DNA of 64,000 nt from the NCBI GenBank assembly GCA_964016885.1, contig OZ024745.1, positions 70,990,001 to 71,054,000 on the forward strand. Direction: 5' to 3'. The translations under genes were made by a program, and so were the position numbers. Below the pieces are notes generated by a model. That model searched no databases, was not told the DNA's origin, and saw only the letters and a list, made by a program, of their open reading frames with translations. Positions 939 through 41,215 of the stretch are shown piece after piece (within the stretch, counting starts at the first letter, position 1; every line of letters begins with the position of its first letter). The stretch is from Eledone cirrhosa. Taxonomy: Eukaryota.

Positions 939-1924
939 TGTTTCTTTTATTTGCCACAAGGGCATCAAAAGTGGGACAAGTACAATGGGGGGAGTTTACA
1001 AAACAAGGCGTCCTCAATAGGGAGGAGGCAATAACAATATATAAAAATAAAATAAAATATAACAAAAAATAGAATTATAACAAAATCCTCAATAGAGGAT
1101 TTTGTTATAAAATATAACAAAAAATAAAATTTATAACAAAATCCTCAATAGAGAGGAGGCGCCTTGGGGGGTCGCACACACCCCAGAAAAAAGTGTGCAA
1201 CCCTTTTCCTCAGGAGCACAGAGAGGGGGTGCTCCCTCGTTCCTTCCTTTTTTCCACCTACAGGCTCATGTAAAGAGAAGGCCCATTCACACGGGCCATT
1301 CTCGCCACTTTCACCCACCTTTCATAAAAACGACTGGGGTGCAGCACCTCTCTCTCCATCCTGATCCTTCTTCCGAAATGATATCGGAAGAAACGGACCA
1401 GTTGTTGGCCAGAGAGAAAGGTGCCTGACCTCAGTCCTTTCAGACGCGTCCACCATACAACCTCTTTCGCCATGGCTATTACGCACAGAAACACCGCCTC
1501 TGCTTCATCTTTGAAGGGGGGAGGCGGCTTGATCATTACAATAGACTCGGTGGTCAACCGGATCGGTCCCACCCTTGACAGCAGTTGTTCGACATAGCCC
1601 CACAGATCGGCTACGCCCGAGCAGTGTACCAATGCGTGTGCAACGGTTTCCTCGTCGCACACGCATCTGGGACAGATCTTTTTGGCGGGGTCCCTACCCG
1701 GGCGCCCATGTCTGTAGAGCCTTTCTCGAACGGGTAAGGCTCCTCGGTAGCACTGCCAGGCCAGGGACTTCTGGAAGTTGTCCATAGGTCCAGGGCTGAA
1801 TGTCCTACCGAACAGGCTGGACAGTTCGTCCTCCTCCATGTCTAGGGCTTCTCCGAGGGCGTCGTCGCACCTGCTGCGTACCAGCCCTCTATAGAATGTT
1901 GCGGTGGAGTCTCCACTGATAACC
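939..1924 (-). mobile_element. 5'-truncated Tx1-like LINE (ORF2 C-terminus and 3' UTR) with 16-bp TSD
   Basis: ORF 1258-1839(-) has the zf-RVT-type motif CPRCVCDEETVAHALVHC. AATAAA lies near the 3' end. The TSD agatatcttatagata is at 923-938 and 1925-1940. Homologous to 22036-23870. Confidence 0.9.
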
Positions 1925-2064
1925 AGATATCTTATAGATAGTTAGATAGATAGATATGATAATTTCCGTCGAATGAAAGAGTGGTATACCTGTAGAAGCC
2001 ATTTCTATATTAAAAATGTATACTTGCTATGTATGGTGGTTACTTCCGATTGAACCCGGGATAC

Positions 2065-8737: not shown

Positions 8738-9318
8738 ATGGTGGCTGCCAACTCGTATTCGAGTACGGCCACTACTTTATATCCATGTAGGAGAACTCCT
8801 ACTGATGCGCTGAACGAGTGTGACTTTTTAGTCCAGCCAGCGACTTGAAAACTTTGGTATAAACACTACACTTGTGACAATTACTGACACATAGTGCTGA
8901 GCCCATTGTACCATGTGATGACAAGTGCAGAGAGATCTCCAGATATAAAGCAATGCCGGTGCCGTGAAGCTTTTATAGTGAGCAAAGGCACTGCACAAAG
9001 CCAGTCCCACTGTCTTAACCAAGATGATATTTACCAAAAAGAAGAACACGTCAACATCATTGGATACCATCAGGGTTGCATGTGTTATATCAGAGTTTTC
9101 CTTCTCCTAGAATTCTGCCTTGACAAAGGCTAAAGGGTCATCTCTCCCGGTGATTTTGGATGGCCATTGACTCTTAAGAGCTCCTACGTCCTTTGAACTT
9201 TGACCTTTGACAGGTTTTGTTTTTAGTCCTGCAGGATGTCCAAAGTCACCCTCCTCACCAAGAAACCTTAGTGGGGTTGCCAGTTTAGTCGCCAACGACC
9301 CGACCATGAGACAGGTTG
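8738..9318 (-). mobile_element. Non-autonomous, probably RTE-related element with (TATG)n tail
   Basis: The minus strand has ctaggagaaggaaaactctga, a motif I associate with RTE 5' UTRs, and ends gagttggcagccacc(atgt)n. A close partial copy is at 4027-4348(+) and a relative at 8350-8650(-). Confidence 0.65.
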
Positions 9319-9376
9319 TACATACATACATACATACATACATACATACATACATACATACATACATACATACATA

Positions 9377-9800
9377 AAGCACAACCGGCCTGATATTGTT
9401 GTTTGGGACCACACATTGAAAACGTGTTCTGTTGTGGAGATCAGCTTCCCACTTGATGTAAACGTTGTCAGAAAAATACAGGAGAAGGAGGACATCTACG
9501 GACCATTGATGAGGAGTTTACAAATTCAGTATCCAAGATACACCTTTAGCTTCATACCCATCATTATTGGAGCTACGGGTTATATACCAACCCGTTTGGA
9601 CCAAAGTATGACTGAACTTGGATTTGCGGACAAAGAGCGCAGCTCCCTAATTCATAGTCTACAAATGGCTGCGATAGCTGGGACCTTCAAAATTTGCAAA
9701 ACATTCTTGCGATTCAAGGGATGACAATTTCTTTTCTTTTACTACCTTGCCACCAGGAAGGTGGCCGGTCAAAAAAATATACTCGAAATTAAGAGAAAGA
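9377..9800 (+). mobile_element. RLE-type non-LTR retrotransposon 3' end inside a (TACA)n tract
   Basis: KHNRPDIVVWD...VEISFP...IPIIIGATGYIP...KTFLRFKG*, followed by a short 3' UTR. (TACA)n lies on both sides. Confidence 0.85.
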
Positions 9801-19399: not shown

Positions 19400-19536
19400 A
19401 TGAATTCTTTGATACCAAACGGGCGACAATGTGGTCCAAACAAAAGAACACAATGGCCAAATTTGTCGGCACTGAAGTCATTAAAAGAGCTTAACCTAAA
19501 ATTACCCTCACCAGAAGGGGATTCTGCTAAAAATGG
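19400..19536 (+). CDS. Candidate alternative first coding exon of the innexin
   Basis: ATG at 19400 opens MNSLIPNGRQCGPNKRTQWPNLSALKSLKELNLKLPSPEGDSAKN and ends GG|GTAGGT. The 137 nt give phase 2, matching the acceptor at 34990. The segment lies in a non-repetitive island. No transcript support is available. Confidence 0.3.
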
Positions 19537-19944
19537 GTAGGTATTTCGGCATCCTTTATTGCAACACAATTATGTCACGCATTTATAGTTCGGTCTGTTG
19601 GGCCCCTAAGGCAATACCTATCTTATATTTTGTAAAGGACATGAGTTATCGTTGTTATCAATGTTTTTTGTTTTTTTCATAGTTTGATTTAGGATGTAGT
19701 CATAAACGAATCTTTGGAATGTTATTTTCATTATTCCATCACTTCTATTTCGTGCTGTTTCAAACTTGACAAGAAAGATTAGGTTGTGTTTATAAGTTTT
19801 CTTTATCTTCTGTCGACTTGCATCAGGCATGAAGATAGACAAGCCAGATATACAGTTAATTGTAGAATTGGCGTAGCACTGTTCCATTCTTATGTTTATC
19901 AAAGCTAATAATTCTTGGAATCGCGAATTCTATCGACATTTAGC

Positions 19945-20562: not shown

Positions 20563-21190
20563 GTATTTATCTTACTTTACGTTCATACGAGTTATCACCA
20601 ACTCACAACCAGTGGCCTCAAGAGACAACAAGGTCCGCCATGTTCAAGAAAGAACATACATACACACATACATGCATCTTTAGGTATTTAGACTTGTGAT
20701 GTACTTATATTGACAGAATCTTCTTTAGTATATGGGCAGTTCCCATTAGTACTGTCTTTTGAATTTCTTCCATACGCAGGTTTCCTGGGATTTTGGATAA
20801 GTAATCATTAGACCCCTTAGGTATCATTCCTAGAGCGCCTACAACCACTGGTATTGTTTTAGTTCTCAACTTCCACATTTTTCAAATTTCTATCTCCAGG
20901 TCTTTATACTTGCTCAATTTTTCAAATGTTTTTATAGATACATTCTTGTCTATTGGAACGGACATATCAATTAGCAGGCATACCCTCTTTTTAAAGTCCT
21001 TCAATATTATATCAGGTCTATTTGCATCTATTTTTCGGTCTGTTTGGATGCTAAAGTTCCACAAGATTGAGATGTGATCTTTTTCAAGTACTGGGGGTGG
21101 TTGATGCTCCCACCAATTCTTTTGATGGGGCAGGTCAAAATGTTTACACATTACCCAATGTATGTATTGTGCAGCTCTGTCGTGCCTGCT
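20513..21190 (-). mobile_element. R4/Dong-like RLE non-LTR retrotransposon 3' fragment with (TAA)n tail
   Basis: RHDRAAQYIHW...NRPDIILKD...LIDMSVP...KLSKYKDL...IPVVVGALG, a restriction-like endonuclease domain. Stop at 20705-20707, one internal stop, then 3' UTR and (TAA)n at 20513-20562. Confidence 0.88.
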
Positions 21191-21806
21191 CCCAGCAAGC
21201 ATGCCTTTTGAAGTGTTCCAAAAAGCGGGGCGGGGCCAATTTTCTTTAACCATCCCTGGAAACTTTTTGAGATAGTACCTAGTGCGCTTATGAACTTCAT
21301 GGTAGTTCCAAATCCTTTTTACCTCCCACTTTAAGTCCTGGCATCGGTTAATTTTCTCCCTCTCCTTCTCTTACACTCTCGTGTCGAATGGGCAGGCCAC
21401 ATTCACAATCAGGCACGATCTTTTTTCCTTGTCCAAACCACCAGGTCAGGTCTATTGTGTTCCAGTTTCTTGTCTGTCTGTATCCTAAAATCCCACACCA
21501 CCTTCACCTGATCGTTTTCTATCACCGACTCTGGCTTATGCTCATACCACTTCTCATAATGTGGTAAATTGTTTACTTTGCATAGGTGCCAGTGGATCAC
21601 CCTGATCATCACATCATGTCTCCAGCCCTTATAGTGAGTCTGGGCTAGGTGTTTACACTCGGATACAATGTGAGCCACAGTCTCCTCTCTCTCTCCACAG
21701 ATCCTGCACAGTGGGCTAGCCTCCTCCTTGTAAATATGGTGTTTCAGCCACTTCGTTTTGAGGGCCTGCTCTTGCGGAGCCATTAGCATTCCTTCTGTAG
21801 CCTTTT
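21190..21806 (-). mobile_element. Second R4/Dong-like RLE fragment (different subfamily)
   Basis: QEQALKT, CCHC knuckle CRICGEREETVAHIVSEC, RHD and HNRPDLVV. Frameshifted downstream. Flanked 5' by (TAA)n at about 21815-21865. Confidence 0.85.
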
Positions 21807-21813
21807 TAAGGTC

Positions 21814-21865
<52 letters not shown>

Positions 21866-22035
21866 TCCTTTCATTATTGTTTCTGAGATATATGCCGAGT
21901 GTCTTGTCTTCCTGACACCTAGGGCAAATAAATTCACAGTGTGCATTGGTAAGCCAGTTAATACAGCACATAGATTATAATTTAAAAAAAACAGTATACA
22001 TATATACACATGTGTATATGCATATGTAAATACAA

Positions 22036-23870
22036 GATATCTGGCGGCAGTTCTGAGAGCAGCTCGCTTTGGGCCCGTCTTCAGAAGCTGGATCGCTGCC
22101 ATGCACAGCGACATCTGGTCTGTGGTGAGAGTGAACGGTCACGTTTCGGAACCGTTCAACATCATGCGCTCGGTCCGCTAAGGATGTCCCCTCTCGTCCC
22201 TCTTGTACGTATTGACTCTCGAGCCATAACTGCACAAACTGGAGACGTTGAGGGGGGGTCCCGCGCGAACTAGGATGCGGAAGATCCGTGTCAGCATATG
22301 CGGACGATGTCACCATAGTGGTGTCGAACGCCAAACACATCTAGGTGATCGGCACTACACTAAGAGAATACGAAGCGGTGACAGGAGCAATGATCAACCA
22401 GGAAAAGTCAGTGGGCCTGCAGCTCGGCACCTGGAGAGGCAGGTCCATGCCGTCCAACAGCGTCTTCGGGCGCTGGACGGACGGACCAGTTAAATTGCTC
22501 GGGGTCTGGTTCGGTCCGGATCTCCAGACGGACAAAAACTGGGACGAGGTGACGAGCAGGATGGCATCTCTCACCCAGAAATGGGCCGAGAGGAAGCTAT
22601 CCCTGAAAGGTCGAACGGAGGTGGTTAACGCGTATATCGCGTCCGTCATCTACTACCGCCTGACCGTCGTACCTTGTCCTAAGCCCCGCCTGACTGCGCT
22701 GGAGCGTTTGCTCTTTCGCTTTTTGTGGAAGGGACGCGCTCCGATGGTCAGGCGGTCCATCTGCTGTCAACACCCGCTACGTGGAGGGCTGGGAATGCCG
22801 TGGCTGATGATGCGCAGACATCTCCACCTCTTCCTTGACGGTGATCAGGTGTGGTCTCCGTTTGCTAGACGCGTCTTTCCCCAGCTCGTCTCCTTGACGG
22901 AGCTGCAGTCCTGGGTCAAGCGAAGACCGAGAGGGAGCGCTTGGAAACTGGAATGTCTTCAGGCGCTCACAGCCCTCGACCAATCGGGCAATGTGATCGG
23001 TGGAAACTCGACCTTGGCGTTCTATAGAGGATTAGTGGAGGGGAAGAGCGACGACGTGCTTGGGGAAACTCTAGGCGTCGACGAAAATCAACTAGCCAAT
23101 CTCTTCGGAAGAACTTTCGGGCCGGGGCCTATGGACAACTTCCAGAAATCCCTGGCCTGGCAGTGCTACCGAGGAGCTTTGCCAGTTAGGGATAAACTCT
23201 ACAGGCATGGAGGTGCTGTCAGCCGGGCATGTCCGAGATGCGCGCAGGGCGACGAAACCGTCCTGCACGCACTCGTCCAGTGTCCGAGTTTATGTCGAAC
23301 ACCTGCTGTCACGTGTAGGACGGATCCAGCTATCAGCTGAGTCCATCGTGAGGATTGCCCCACCCTCTTCCTTTAGCCGGGAAGGGCAGGCAGTTTTTAT
23401 CTGCCATGGCAAAAGAGATAATATGGTGGACACGTTTGAAAGGGCTGAAGACGAGCACTTACCTCTTCGGTGATGCCTTGATTAACTTTTTCAAATTTCA
23501 TTTGAAAAGGAAAATCAGGGTAGAGAGGGAAGTGCTCTCTTCCCAGCATTTTGTTGAAAGATGGGTGAGAGAGGCAAGAATGGCTCGAGTGAATGGGCCT
23601 ACTTTGAGTATGTGTCTGTAAATCAAAGGTGGAAAACTGGGAGAGGGCACTTACCCTGGTGGTTAGGGTCACTGTGGCTTTTAATGGGCTTTCTCCACAA
23701 ATGTCCCTCGGAAGTCTCCCTTCTATTGGGGAATTTTTCATTGTTATTTTTATTACATCCTCTGTTGTTTTACACGCAGAAATGCCCATTTGTACCGTCC
23801 TGTATTGTCCTGTACTGTCCTTAATGTCTACTTTATGTAGACCCTTGTGGTTAATAAAGAAAGCATTCTT
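22036..23870 (+). mobile_element. 5'-truncated, decayed Tx1-like LINE (RT and C-terminal zinc finger)
   Basis: RT motifs SVR*GCPLSPLLYVLTLEP, SAYADD, INQEKS and LLGVWFG, plus CPRCAQGDETVLHALVQC. Several stops and frameshifts. AATAAA at 23853-23858. Confidence 0.92.
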
Positions 23871-33685: not shown

Positions 33686-34989
33686 GCGTGTGTGCGTGTG
33701 TGTGTGTGTGTTAAAAATATATTCCAAGCGATTTAAACGCGACTCAATTATTCCTGTTGATAGTAAATTCGCACTCGTTGTGGTTTCAAATTTAGTTCCG
33801 AAAACAATTTTCCATAGATGTACAAAGAATATAATAGAATTGATCAAGACTATTACTCTTCTTTCTTTCCTTCCTTTCTTCGTATATATTTTTCTTGGTT
33901 TTTAATTTTTTTTTTTTTATTCGTCTTTCCTCAGCTCGTTTTTCTCAAACTCATTTTTTCCCGTTTTATATGTATTTTCCGTTTCTCTCATTCTCCTTTT
34001 CCTCAACCACCTTTTCTTTGCGGTTTATAAGACAATGAGTTCTTAGTAGTGGGGGATCAAAAATAGTGGTATTAGTTCGGCGAGAAACCGTGTTAGTCTT
34101 AAAACTACTTTCGTAAACAAAACAGATGCCAAAAACCAGGCCTAATCAATACATATACTGCTATCTTTCTGTAATTATTATACGTCGATAATTCTGTATG
34201 AATGTGTGTGAGAGAGTGTGTGTGTATAAGTATATATGTATGGGCACGTGTGTTTTTATTTTTATGTATTTATATTTATGTATTTGTATGTATATGTGTA
34301 TATTTATGTATATGTGTGTATATATATATATGTGTGCGTATGTGAGTATATTTGTGCACATGTACACGTATGCGTGTGAGTGTGCGTTTGCGTATAAATA
34401 AATGTGTATATGTGAGCAACATAGAAGGCACCTCATTATGTATAATCAGTTTGAAGCTGAGAAACTAAAATCAAAAATATAATATAAATTGCATTATCAT
34501 CTTGAATGTTAAGTCATATAATAAAAATGAAAACTTATGTAACTTATGCATTGCAGAAACCTATTTAATCCTATTTACGTAAACAAATGTTACAGACACT
34601 TCGGAAGAGTCTCTTCATGCCAGCATTATACATACATACATACATACATACATACATACATACATACATACATACATACATACATACATACATACATACA
34701 TGTATGTATGTGTATGTGTGTGTGTGTGTGTGTATATATTTCGTATTAATCGACACAAATACATCACTAATCCATATTATGTACGTTCTTGCATTATTCT
34801 AAACTAGTATGAGATTTCACCGAATTGCAGTTCTCTGTAGGGAAGTAAATTTAAAAGGTTAATGATATTTCGGATAAAATTAATTATACTAATCGAAATG
34901 AATTCAATAATTTTTTTCAATTATGTAATACATGTGGAAATTGTAATAACTACAGAAAATTAATTCTTTTCTATTTTCATCTTTTCCAG

Positions 34990-36193
34990 GCTGGACAGTG
35001 TGTTGGGAAGTTTTGCAACTTATGCTCGCTTGAAAGGGCGCTACGACGATGACTGGATCGACCGGTTAAATCACCTTTACACGACAATAATATTTATTAT
35101 TTTCACAATTGTTGTGAGCACCAAGCAGTATGTTGGGGAACCGATTCACTGCTGGTGCCCTGCACAGTTTACTTCCGGACACAGGGATTATGCCAATAAC
35201 GTGTGTTGGATATCAAACACGTACTACGTTCCTTTCGAGGAACGAATACCTTTGCACCGGGAGGGAAAACAGCAGAAGGAGATCGGATATTATCAATGGG
35301 TTCCCATGATCCTTCTCTTCCAAGCCTTGTTATTTAAAGTTCCTTGCATTTTGTGGAGGATCCTTGGTGCTTCCGGAGGCGTAAACCTGGATAAGATTGT
35401 TACGTTAGCAGCCGACACCCAATTTGTGGCTCCTGAAGATCGAGAGAGAACTATCAAACATATAGTCCGATATATGGACCGCTGGCTTGAAAACGCCAGG
35501 GAATATCGATCGGGCTGCCTCATACGAATGCGCCAGACTCTATCGAAATACTGTTGCATTGTGTGGGGGAAACGCTATGGAAATTACCTCTTTATTATCT
35601 ACATGGTTATCAAGATTTTTTACATGGGAAATGCTGTAGGACAGCTTTTCATTTTGAATGAATTTTTAGGCACAAACTATAATCTGTACGGATTCGAAGT
35701 TCTGAGTCACTTAGCCAATGGAGATGACTGGACGGAGTCTCCAAGATTCCCACGTGTGACGATGTGTGACTTTGAAATTCGCCAGATGCAAAATGTTCAT
35801 AAATACACTGTACAGTGTGTGCTACCCATCAACCTATTCAATGAGAAGATTTTTATTTTCATTTGGTTCTGGTTAGTGTTTGTTTCAACCTTTAGTGCCG
35901 GCAATTTTCTGATATGGTTTTATGCAATGGTATTCCGCCAACACCGTATTAGATACCTGAAAAAGTTCCTGAGAGTGAACGAATGTTACAAGACAGAACT
36001 GGATAAAAAAATGGCGGTGAAATTCGCGGATCAATACTTAAGGCATGATGGGATATTTGTTTTGAGACTTGTAGGCAAAAACGCCAATGACGTGCTGGTA
36101 TCCGAGCTTGTTCTTCAACTGTGGAACCATTACCGGAACAAGCCACTTTTTCGGCACGCCAACCCCATTAGCGACGACAACAGTAACGTCTGA
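34990..36193 (+). CDS. Innexin (invertebrate gap-junction protein, UNC-9/UNC-7-like), main coding exon
   Basis: About 400 aa with innexin signatures DDDWIDRLNH, QYVGEPIHCWCP, YYQWVP, FPRVTMCDF and QCVLPINLFNEKIF, four hydrophobic segments and paired extracellular Cys. A polypyrimidine tract plus CAG acceptor (ttttctattttcatcttttccag, AG 34988-34989) opens the exon in phase 2 (g|CTG GAC AGT GTG = xLDSV). The GTG start at 35000 in the ORF track is therefore probably not the true start. Confidence 0.96.
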
Positions 36194-36418
36194 CTAGCCG
36201 TCAGGCACCTTATCAAATTTCTTCAACTCAAACAACACTCACGTTTGTTACGCCTGCTATGGCCCGTGGAGGCCGAACACGGTGTCCTTCTATCAGGAAG
36301 GGCACTCAAAGGACAGCGACAACAACAGATATGTCGCGAGTCAAACGAAATTCGGCTGGGGTATTGCCAAGGCAACACAACTAGCTGCGGACAGCCCAAA
36401 AAAACTATACCAAAATAA
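36194..36418 (+). CDS. Putative stop-codon readthrough extension of the innexin (74 aa)
   Basis: TGA at 36191-36193 is followed by CTAG and an in-frame open stretch LAVRHLIKFLQLKQHSRLLRLLWPVEAEHG...GQPKKTIPK to TAA at 36416-36418. Composition switches to A/T-rich at about the second stop. Confidence 0.5.
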   Translation, partial: LAVRHLIKFLQLKQHSRLLRLLWPVEAEHGVLLSGRALKGQRQQQICRESNEIRLGYCQGNTTSCGQPKKTIPK

Positions 36419-37415
36419 ATTTTAAAAAAAAACAACATCCAAAGTGTTTTAAACTATCAGATTAATAGAATGAAATTTAATCTTTTTTTTTTTGTTTATT
36501 AATCAACCTTAGTCATAGGATTAAGTAACCATTTAAAATAAATAAGGCTGGGTGAGTCTTCATTCCATAAAGATACTGGCAACTGAAACTACGTAAACAG
36601 TAAACACTTTCTTCCCCTTAATATAAAATAATTAGCAAAATAAAATCTAGTGTTTGCTTCACTGAATTAATTAAACCATAAATGATAGAATATTATTCTT
36701 GTAAATATAAAACAAGTAAACATTTACCAAATATTTGGTTGGTTACTCAGGACAAGAACGTTAAGTTGTAGAGAAAAGAGAACACAAACTAGACAAGTGA
36801 AAAGGAAAGAAAGTTAATAAGCATCATATGAATGGTAAAAGTAATATTTATTAAATTAAATTAAATTATATTGAAAGATTAGTAACATTGAACTAGCGAG
36901 AAGACTAAAACATATATACACACAGTAACCTATACAGGGTAACACATACGTAGAACATTAAGTGTATAAGAAAAACTTCCTCGCTACAATGACACAGCTC
37001 TGTAGCTACATAATACTTGTCAACAAACATAATTATTGTAAATTATTTAAGACCAATCATAAGTGTTGAAGAGACGTCACAACAGTAAAGATCATGTTTC
37101 CTGATATGTTTCTAACTAAATTAACGGGGCAATATAGGAAAATTATACATAATAAAATTTACTACTGCTACCACTACCACTATTACTACTACTTACCAGC
37201 ACCACTACAACAACTACTACTACTACTGCTACTACTACTATTGCTGCTGCTGCTACTAACAAGAACACTATAGTTATTTTAATGGATATCTTAATAGCAA
37301 TTCCTGAAGTTAGTTTTATAATTTTTTCTTCACAATTCGTAATAAAAATTATAAATTTAGTTTCAACTGTCTCACTTCCAAATAAACTCATACACACGCA
37401 TACATATGTGTAAAT

Positions 37416-37501
<86 letters not shown>

Positions 37502-37735
37502 TTGTATTGTGTGTGGAAGGTATTTACATTTACATACAGATAGAGACATGGAACACGCATATACATATAAATAGTCATAGTAAACTACATAGTTCCTATT
37601 AATGTGAGTTTATAACATATGTTACTTAAAGCCATTTCAGTATACGCATATGTATGAATACCTACTTCAATTTCTTCAATTTACAAAAATTTGTTTCACT
37701 ATATTTTACAAAAAAAAACACACAAAAACCACATG

Positions 37736-37800
<65 letters not shown>

Positions 37801-39132
37801 CGGTTTTACGCAGACATGTCTAAGCTGGCTCACCAACTAACATACTACGAATTATATTGTGAGAATTAAAACTATGTTTAATTGACAAGAATATTTAAGT
37901 AATTTCAGAAATTATGTAACTATTAGTTATATATTTACATACTATATTCATATACTACCCATATATATCTTTATATATATGGGTGTGTGTAAATAAGTTA
38001 GATGTTAGTATATTATATAAAGGTTTGTGGCAGTGGCAGTATGTTAAACATTTTCAATAACAAATAATAATTCAGTCATTTAATATTTTCTTCATTTTTT
38101 CGTATTTTTTAATATAACAGAATGAAGCCAATTATTGTCACAATTGGTTGTTTTGTTATTGTTGTTGAATTTTGTTGATTTTTTTATAGTCTCTTCCCCA
38201 TCCACTCCACCACAATATAAAAATTAAAAGTGTTTTCCTCTCTTTGAAAAATTAGAACAGTATTGATTAAACTAAACATTTTACAATATGAAAATTTAGA
38301 AGAGAATGTATTTCTAGGCCGTCCATCTTCCAGCTCAGTGTGCTCATACATACATGCACAGACACAGCCACAAGCACAGGGATAATAATCACAAACTTAC
38401 ATAATCTCTCACATACACAGGCACACATTTTCAATGTGTGAAATGGCAGTAAATCTTTTGTATCATTTTTATACAGAACAGGCCTTAACTGAGCACCACG
38501 AAGTATACAGAAGCATCATCCCTTTTGTTTATATGTTTGGGGTTTTTTTTTTAATTTTATTTTCACTAGTGATACCCGATTGCCACACCTCACCTACAGT
38601 ACATCGTAGCAGCCCCCTCTAACTATTAAAGAAATTCTGCCATAAAAGTAAATCTCCTTATGATGTTTCCTTGATCCCCGACGAGAGTTCTTCATCGATC
38701 CACATTCTTTGAGACTCAATACGTCGGAATCATGGTGACACTATATAGGTGGAGTACTACTGTCGTACAACACTAATCTTTAAAATCCAGTAATACAAAT
38801 TTAGATAAACAAAACTTAATAATGAACAAATAAATAAATAATAAACCAAGCAGCAATAATTCTTATTATGATTAGCTATAGAATAAATTATTTATTATAA
38901 CTGAAATTATCATTATAATATGCTAACAAATATTAACTAATAATCCAAGCACAATTTATAGAGCACCAAAATTCAAATTTTCTTTTTCTTGACAAGCTGG
39001 CGTGATGTAATCTTAAAATATGAAAGTTCTCTATCTATATTCACACACATCACGTTCATGTAAATAAATTTAGATACACACACATACACATATATGCAAA
39101 CATACACACAGGCACACGTATATGGATATATA

Positions 39133-39180
<48 letters not shown>

Positions 39181-39899
39181 CAGTTATGCGTGCATATGTA
39201 AATATGAAATGATATATATACAAAGTTATATATAGTTATATGTATATAATGTATATGATTATAAAATCACTCATACATTACAAAAACAAGCATTTTACCT
39301 ATATCTACGAAGTATTATATTCCTGCATATATGTGTATATGTTCGTGTGTGTGTGTATGTACATATAAATGCTTAAATGTCTGTGTGAATGTGTGTGTGT
39401 ATGTGTAAGTGTATATTTGTATATAGGTGTATACATATATATATATATACACATATATATACACACATGTATACACACATACATACATGTACACACGCAA
39501 ATATATTTAGATTTAGAATATACCCTTTCAGTTATTTTTTTTTAATTACAACATTTTTAATTATATTATATATAACAATCTAAACATTTTTATAGAAAAA
39601 TTTAAACTTGCCCCTCTTTTGAATAATAATTCTTCGTTAAGTTGAACGATTCTTACCTGTTGTAATTACAATAAATTTATTTAAATATAAAATACATACA
39701 TACGCAATGGCATACACGTAAAATACTCAGACAGAAATATACATAGTTGTATACATACATGTTTACGTTTATATATAAATATATGTGTGTGTATTTGTGT
39801 ATATATGCATGTATGTGTATGTATATATATATACATAAATATATACATAAATAAATATACACATAATATACATAAACATATACATATAATATACATATA

Positions 39900-40052
<153 letters not shown>

Positions 40053-40759
40053 GTGTGTATGTGTGTATATATATATATATATGTATGTGTATAAACGTAA
40101 GTATGTGTGTATATATGTAGAGTAACATACATGTAAACTACAAAACGACACACTCAGTATAGAATCTATGTTTCCACGATCCTCGAAACTGTTGAAATTT
40201 TTTTTTTTGCCAGTGGAAGAAACAAAAGCCCAGAAAACATAAACATCTGTGTTATAATACAAGAAATATTTTTCTTTACATTGAAATTTATGTAAAAACA
40301 ACAATATGTTAATATGTTGATATATATTCTTCATTAATTGTTTACGTTTTTGCGTGGTGAAATTTGTTAACATTCTTTGTTGATGTTATGTTGACATTTA
40401 TGTTGTTACGATGTTCAGATATCATAATACAGATCTTCCTTGAGAAACCTTCATTTTATATAAACATACATATATTCATACATTCATATATGTGTGTATC
40501 TCTGTGTGTGTCATTGTGATAGGCGTGTTTCTGTGAAATGAGATGTATATATTAACTAAATTAGGTACGAGGTAGGTATATATGACATCAATACAATGTG
40601 GTATTGAAGTAACTGTGGTATAAGCTAGCTTTCGTATAAACTAGCTGTTATAAAATTATATTAATTACTAATCAAGATGTTTGTAAGTATGTATATATGT
40701 ATATAGCTTGAGCAGGATACATAAAAACTGAGTAGGGTGTAAAAATACATGCTATAGAT

Positions 40760-41215
40760 TAATGCCGTCACTGCTGATGGATAGGTTATATAGTACATGG
40801 TACAGTAGCAATGAGGCAAGAATAGGATATGAGGTACATGTTACACCAACATTGCTACTTAATAGTGACGCCACTACTGAATAGAGATGTACATATTGAC
40901 AGTGATGTTGCTACTGAATCGAGGTACAGTTTACCAGGTCGTTGCTACTGAATTGAGAGATATACGTTTTAGTGACGTTGGTAGTTAATAGAGGTAAACG
41001 TCTACTTAATAGAGGTACACTTTAGAATGACGTTGCTACTTAATAAAGTTAAACGTTACAGTGACGTTGCTACTTAATAGAGGTACACGTTAGAGTGACG
41101 TTGCTACTTAATAAAGGTAAACGTTACAGTGATGTTGCTACTTAATGGAGGTACACGTTAGAGTGACAGAAGTACGCGTTAGAGTGATGTTTCTGAGTAC
41201 AATACGTGTTATAGT
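40760..41215. repeat. 34-bp minisatellite (about a dozen diverged units)
   Basis: Unit gtgacgttgctacttaatagaggtacacgttaga, best conserved at 41030-41170. Confidence 0.85.

Follow-up and report, generated by a model that had tools for sequence, protein, structure and literature searches.

The UGA stop codon of an innexin gene in the octopus Eledone cirrhosa probably undergoes programmed readthrough at a UGA-CUA signal common to two mollusc classes, which would yield a C-terminally extended innexin; decoding by a near-cognate tRNA is most likely. The DNA analysed, hereafter the window, is a stretch of 64,000 nucleotides ([GenBank:GCA_964016885.1], contig OZ024745.1, positions 70,990,001 to 71,054,000 of the forward strand), to which all coordinates below refer. 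The stop context, the open frame behind it, their conservation in clams and near relatives, and the presence of the extension in spliced contigs are established here. The readthrough interpretation draws on a TGA-CTA context that appears to be conserved where synonymous sites are free to change, and on a second open reading frame that seems to evolve as coding sequence and to keep its frame. The features discussed below are the following:

19400..19536 (+), alternative first coding exon of the innexin, with ATG at 19400 and GT donor at 19537, located by tblastn of the P0125 N-terminus (E 7e-32) and of P0001
34990..36190 (+), main coding exon of an unc-9-like innexin, 400 codons from 34991, acceptor TTTTCCAG, PF00876
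36182..36190 (+), last three codons S-N-V, fitting the class I PDZ-ligand pattern S/T-x-V
36191..36201 (+), innexin stop and putative readthrough context TGA CTA GCC GT; clams have TGA CTA ACC GT, 10/11 nt identical
36194..36259 (+), basic proximal part of the extension, with a predicted helix that runs on across the stop; its first 15 codons are common with bivalve extensions
36260..36415 (+), distal part of the extension, predicted to be disordered; it does not align to bivalve tails, hardly varies among near relatives and ends in KKTIPK
36281..36306 (+), predicted 11-bp RNA hairpin in the extension (z -2.6, window chosen after the fact), not in clams
36414..36419 (+), AATAAA hexamer containing the second stop TAA (36416-36418); the hexamer had gone unmentioned in the first-pass annotation
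36419..36599 (+), start of the A/T-rich, freely evolving 3' UTR (GC 0.25; four runs together show 20 distinct substitutions and 8 rows of indels)

The open reading frame upstream of the stop matches PF00876 with 352 bits against a cut-off of 25 (E 4e-105, Pfam) and is thus an innexin; its best solved relative is INX-6 (E 2e-51). The 400-aa core is 100% identical to P0001, whose 90% cluster includes named records from Octopus bimaculoides, O. sinensis, O. vulgaris and Argonauta, and it shares 78-83% identity with the 'unc-9-like' innexins of gastropods, bivalves and chiton. The exon at 19400-19536 lies 15.4 kb upstream of the main one. Isoforms of this innexin in the databases join at least 10 different first exons to the same acceptor, and the others were not found in the 64-kb window. 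Three contigs (X6, X14 and X17) are interrupted at the 34988-34990 acceptor; the letters upstream of it are foreign and, in X14, resemble by eye the first exon of P0128. Elsewhere in the window, four pieces of open reading frame look by eye like remnants of non-LTR retrotransposons: 1258-1941 (-), 9272-9724 (+), 20882-21870 (-) and 22345-23473 (+).

The C-terminal ends of the innexin orthogroup were counted over 139 proteins: 126 end in NSNV, 11 in ETEV, one in ETAV and one in DTIV. P0012, a Mya arenaria record, is a duplicate of the orthologue that has diverged; its end is now ENDTIV, still T-x-V. None of the 8 innexin paralogues in the animal's own genome has a TGA-CTA, and the frames downstream of their stops run for 2-26 codons (9/9 candidates scored). 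P0027, from another innexin clade with an EGEDV end, carries a W followed by a 20-aa tail; this tail starts with Asp and so does not fit a CUA context, and it is probably a gene-caller artefact.

In the window, GTC TGA CTAG occupies 36188-36197, with the TGA at 36191-36193, and the frame then stays open for 74 codons (36194-36415) up to the TAA. The first-pass annotation had described this TGA-CTAG stop and 74-aa in-frame extension with coordinates and a translation that proved identical on re-checking. The drop in GC that it placed near the second stop is equally real, from about 50% to 16-22% (0.44, 0.56, 0.52 and 0.52 in successive 50-nt segments 3' of the stop, then 0.22 and 0.16). Third-position GC of the octopus extension is unremarkable (0.46). 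Judged on the window only, the open frame goes modestly beyond chance and is weak evidence: 74 open codons are kept in 2.8% of 100,000 mononucleotide shuffles of the extension, CTAG has a background of about 0.2-0.9% directly after a given stop, and the +1 frame is likewise open, for 75 codons (36198-36422, +). The comparison across near relatives and clams turns this into strong evidence. The extension DNA is single-copy in its own genome. Pfam gave no match above cut-off for three extensions, and a HMMER search of the 74 residues against 1.84 billion representatives returned a single match, P0212 (E 4e-4), which is repetitive and looks unrelated.

The stretch is present in 20 of the 24 listed sequencing runs, representing 9 coded organisms, and no run containing it is recorded as RNA; 7 runs of 7 other organisms were aligned. 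Substitutions were compared in organisms D, F, H and I, for which per-run totals exceed the listed changes by 1-2 letters. Three changes are listed there in the extension (C36280T, C36290T and A36292T), with no indels, and a fourth, A36292C, is among the changes listed for organism B. All four are synonymous in frame 0; three of four would be non-synonymous in the +1 frame and all four in the +2 frame. The chance of an all-synonymous outcome in frame 0 is 0.014-0.026 for three changes and 0.003-0.008 for four. As a candidate coding frame, the +1 frame was rejected on these non-synonymous changes and because it is shut by a TAG at 36195. In the same four organisms, 20 distinct substitutions and 8 rows of indels fall in the 181 nt that follow the extension, beginning at 36420; the excess over the extension has a Fisher p of 4e-5, or, conservatively, 6e-4 when the homopolymer-rich part is left out. 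Since the gap totals of B and G are fully covered by listed UTR indels, the extension is free of indels in six organisms. The frame-specific octopod signal consists of these 3-4 changes only: three of the four share one codon, and the last 126 nt (42 codons) have no change at all and are uninformative on frame.

Upstream of the stop, the four relatives, in which the UTR differs by 6-7%, show a single change over the last 80 codons of the CDS (35951-36190, 240 nt). This near-invariance suggests constraint at the nucleotide level around the stop too, and synonymous sites in this part of the CDS look constrained. Contig X14, spliced at 34988, continues unbroken to 36776 with no change listed at 36191-36197, and X6 spans 34990-36623, both recording the majority form only. 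Because these spliced contigs continue through the stop and the extension, the spliced mRNA includes the extension. Transcript-like contigs extend past the AATAAA at 36414-36419 to at least 36599-36776, so this hexamer is not the sole polyadenylation signal.

A metagenome scan yielded two orthologue loci, L011 and L012, both from clams, out of 440 pattern matches; viral contig and genome contig collections held no orthologue DNA. The comparison at the DNA level covers these two clam loci and the close relatives. Both clam loci read GT(C/T) TGA CTA ACC GT, against GTC TGA CTA GCC GT in the window, and stay open after the TGA for 51 (L011) and 49 (L012) codons, each tail ending in SETEV. Synonymous sites are saturated between them over the last 230 CDS codons (pS 0.95, pN 0.026), and TGA-CTA is kept at both. 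In the extension pS is about 0.70 and pN 0.15-0.18 (Fisher p 9e-9), giving a dN/dS of about 0.08-0.11, the range coming from gap placement, with one 6-nt indel that is in frame. By this substitution pattern, the clam extensions are under purifying selection. Past the second stop the two loci share only a 17-nt local match. This match (about 1460-1476 in L011, about 2430-2447 in L012) contains TATGACGTCA and may be due to chance.

The first-pass annotation had read the stop as a readthrough site and proposed looking in orthologues for a conserved TGACTAG, a maintained frame and synonymous-biased substitutions. The readthrough interpretation gains support from the TGA-CTA, the frame and the synonymous bias kept in clams (dN/dS about 0.09, in-frame indel) and from the synonymous-only changes in near relatives (3/3, or 4/4 with B). 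The heptamer itself holds in part: TGA-CTA is found at 2/2 clam loci, and the fourth base differs, the clams having TGA-CTAA.

Protein records extend the comparison to other bivalves. Twelve records of the orthogroup continue past NSNV through a W, as would be expected of gene callers reading TGA as Trp. Their tails start with W-Leu, are 48-72 aa long and end in ETEV or ETAV. In the oyster cluster (P0010, P0194-P0198 and P0201) the tail has 48 residues, starts LTAHKLLKLV and ends in ETEV, and other members of the cluster that share this core end at NSNV. In the clam type (P0175, P0219, P0222 and P0223) it has 49 residues. In P0248, which is probably bivalve, it has 72, starts LAVVKV and ends in ETAV. 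The tail of L012 is the same as that of P0175, so the W of P0175 is a TGA; in the oyster (P0010-type), P0223 and P0248 tails the W is the gene caller's reading, known from protein records alone, and that of P0248 may be a genuine TGG. In a quick tree of 46 rows, a clade of 21 rows (SH-aLRT 96) unites the window protein with P0010, P0175, P0223, P0248, L011 and L012; P0248 falls among the bivalves on 19% of the columns, and all extension-bearing records in the tree belong to one orthogroup. In the supplement of PMC8049302 (1 file, 1,945 characters), searched for gastropod 3' ends, the motifs sought did not occur.

The start of the octopus tail resembles the bivalve tails beyond chance. Residues 2-15 were compared with the clam, oyster and P0248 lineages, the first Leu being excluded since it is fixed by the CTA. 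Their summed score is 46.7 against a null mean of -35, a value that random peptides without stops attained 4 times in 100,000 for one composition and 2 times for another (P 2e-5 to 4e-5). Over the first 15 residues, 7 are identical between octopus and L012. Beyond residue 15 the octopus tail aligns to bivalve tails in no frame. Thus the first 15 or so of the 74 codons are recognisably shared with bivalves and the remainder, set against bivalve tails of 48-72 aa, is not; ET(E/A)V, with which the tails of bivalves consistently end, is missing in octopus. An old frameshift hiding a bivalve-like distal tail was considered and rejected, the best shuffle p values among 15 frame-by-record local alignments being 0.046 and 0.051, uncorrected. 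The string ESNEI was likewise rejected, by eye only, as a relic of SETEV.

Five other explanations were weighed against programmed readthrough. In the first, which we consider unlikely, functional readthrough is ancestral in bivalves, and the octopod 225 nt now serve mainly as an RNA element (hairpins, an editing substrate or a UTR motif), with the proximal peptide alone mattering, or none of it. Besides the hairpin at 36281-36306, a second is predicted at 36310-36390 (+, z -3.0), and the whole region has a z of -2.4. All four octopod changes fit the first hairpin, for they sit in its loop, make a G-U pair or fall just outside the stem. The invariant distal 126 nt, the loss of the ETEV end and the depletion of synonymous changes in the CDS near the stop would also be expected of such an element. 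However, the folding windows were chosen after the fact, and the first 140 nt show no more folding than shuffled sequence does (z -1.2). Moreover, constraint stops within 2 nt of the frame-0 stop, and the similarity of the proximal peptide to bivalves persists though synonymous positions have changed. The clam extensions give no fold signal (z -1.0 and -0.5), and we found no conserved stimulatory RNA structure common to octopus and clams.

It is still less probable that the long form arises not from ribosomal readthrough but from A-to-I editing, which would convert UGA into UGI, read as Trp. Coleoid cephalopods edit heavily, according to the available part of PMC5868278. The octopus stop also lies within a predicted hairpin with a 7-bp stem (36188-36206, +). 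However, this hairpin is not kept in L012, and among the changes listed for contigs X14, X18 and X20, which record the majority form only, there is no A>G at position 36193. The feature conserved across classes is the CUA 3' context, which is typical of ribosomal readthrough, and to our knowledge heavy recoding by editing is not known in bivalves.

Selenocysteine insertion at the UGA is highly improbable. A conserved in-frame UGA followed by coding-like sequence is what it would produce, but no SECIS family is among the 66 Rfam matches at E<=5 in 34900-41000 (the 3' end of the mRNA being uncertain), nor does Rfam find a SECIS in L011 or L012, of which L011 covers about 250 nt of UTR only. A crude scan for SECIS motifs gave 2 matches, neither of which folds stably. 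In addition, the 139 orthogroup proteins include no homologue with Cys at the UGA position, and the C-terminal motif of the short form is conserved. To alternative splicing around the stop we give an equally small probability. TGACTA(A/G)C is branch-point-like and CTAG acceptor-like, and CTGACTAAC in L011 matches a branch-point-like consensus. But the clams have CTAA, with no AG there, a GT 15 nt upstream would make an impossibly short intron, the aligned runs show no joint within 36194-36418, and peptide conservation begins at the first codon past the TGA. Finally, a chance open frame in a GC-rich start of the UTR, which the shuffles and the equally open +1 frame might suggest, conflicts with all the comparative results, the dN/dS of the clams and the similarity across classes already contradicting it, and its probability is close to negligible.

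Under programmed readthrough, a minority of ribosomes would insert an amino acid at the UGA and produce a C-terminally extended subunit. Near-cognate decoding of UGA gives Trp, Arg or Cys. By comparison with the mammalian UGA-CUAG genes, decoding may be expected at a few per cent. AlphaFold2 was given an alignment of 67 rows, of which 8 besides the query have a tail. It predicts, with low confidence (block pLDDT 50-66), that residues 397-423, which span the stop at 401, are helical, and that the sequence beyond is disordered. The first 15 residues of the tail carry a net charge of +2 to +3 in all lineages, and their hydrophobic moment is 0.43-0.63, not significant against shuffles. The first-pass annotation had the extension begin with a basic amphipathic segment; the octopus tail start is basic (net +3) and a helix is predicted, whereas amphipathicity is not borne out (moment 0.63, p 0.057 against shuffles).

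The new C-terminal end would change the anchoring of the channel. A class I PDZ ligand is a C-terminal S/T-x-V/I/L. This pattern fits the SNV of the short form as well as the ETEV (11 records) and ETAV (1 record) of the bivalve long forms; the octopus long form ends in TIPK, which is no PDZ-type end. The pattern also occurs in 11 of 104 other top-match innexins, and SNV and ET(E/A)V are candidate PDZ-type ligands by pattern match only. We put at slightly under even the chance that readthrough buries the SNV behind a basic helix, that ET(E/A)V replaces it in bivalves and a ligand-free tail in octopus, and that mixed hemichannels consequently differ in scaffold binding, location or turnover. The functional step would follow by analogy with the relocalisation of AQP4X and the binding of Connexin36 to ZO-1. 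The extension may also alter trafficking or gating, as the first-pass annotation proposed. The hemichannel of C. elegans INX-6 has 8 subunits. If the mollusc hemichannel is built likewise, 5% readthrough would place a long subunit in about a third of hemichannels.

More tentatively, the switch may be older than the split between cephalopods and bivalves, which dates back more than 500 My. One innexin gene would then have supplied two types of subunit, a short one ending in SNV and a long one with a basic helix and, in bivalves, ETEV; the long tail would have been rewired in octopods to carry no ligand, and regulated readthrough would tune the scaffold binding of electrical synapses.

The mechanism of readthrough is known; the host gene and the clade appear to be new. 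The first-pass annotation knew of no described readthrough isoform of a cephalopod innexin, and none was found in the literature covered on innexins, octopus or mollusc readthrough, a coverage outside which most subscription papers fall. In the available text of a paper on Lymnaea innexins (PMC7052179) neither 'readthrough' nor 'PDZ' occurs. If the readthrough interpretation is true, the database models of a highly conserved mollusc innexin, 79-83% identical between octopus and snails or clams, all lack an isoform, and C-terminal tags or antibodies on this protein would be misread. It would also make it possible to test directly how the subunits of electrical synapses become diverse in animals that have long served neurophysiology (Lymnaea, Aplysia, squid and octopus). 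Conservation across two mollusc classes would make innexin readthrough one of the older events on record, and a readthrough switch between two subunits, if true, would be the first such case for any gap-junction protein.

The mammalian UGA-CUAG genes include AQP4, OPRL1, OPRK1 and MAPK10 (PMC4132726) and VDR, MDH1 and LDHB (PMC5868278). As far as the available parts of these sources go, they resemble the innexin in a UGA-CUA(G) whose nucleotides are conserved across a deep clade, in a short in-frame extension of coding type and in not depending on a conserved 3' RNA structure. In mammals, UGA-CUA on its own supports about 1.5% readthrough, the first six nucleotides being universally conserved (PMC4132726, in part), and all human UGA-CUAG stops tested gave 1.3-6.7% (PMC5868278, in part). 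CUAA is the one variant that raises readthrough, in MAPK10, in the accessible portion of 10.64898/2026.07.14.738498, so the TGA-CTAA context of clams is compatible with readthrough. The innexin differs in belonging to another phylum and another family, in having G as fourth base in octopus and A in clams, in the length of its extension and its C-terminus, which vary between classes, and in that its readthrough is predicted.

Abundant readthrough in Drosophila and Anopheles, placed in Pancrustacea only by the part of 10.1101/051557 at hand, shares with the innexin a conserved stop and a second ORF of coding type that diverges faster than the first. None of 'mollus', 'Lophotrochozoa', 'innexin' and 'gap junction' appears in the main text of that source; an insect innexin could stand among the candidates in its supplements. 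Connexin36 is a gap-junction subunit anchored via a C-terminal PDZ-binding motif, SAYV, which binds PDZ1 of ZO-1 (PMC7179694, in part); the corresponding innexin motif is predicted. Connexins are unrelated in sequence to innexins, and the accessible text of PMC7179694 describes no readthrough.

AQP4X (AQP4ex) is, as the extended innexin would be, a variant subunit of an oligomeric membrane channel. AQP4 itself ends in SSV, a PDZ ligand. The last sense codon before the UGA is for Val in both (GTC/GTT in the innexin; GUA in AQP4, followed by UGA-CUAG, in the available part of PMC4132726). Readthrough of AQP4 reached 12.5% in a reporter and redirects the channel to perivascular endfeet (PMC6392083, in part). 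The two channels differ in their unrelated folds, and in that the innexin extension of bivalves brings a new class I PDZ-type motif at its own end.
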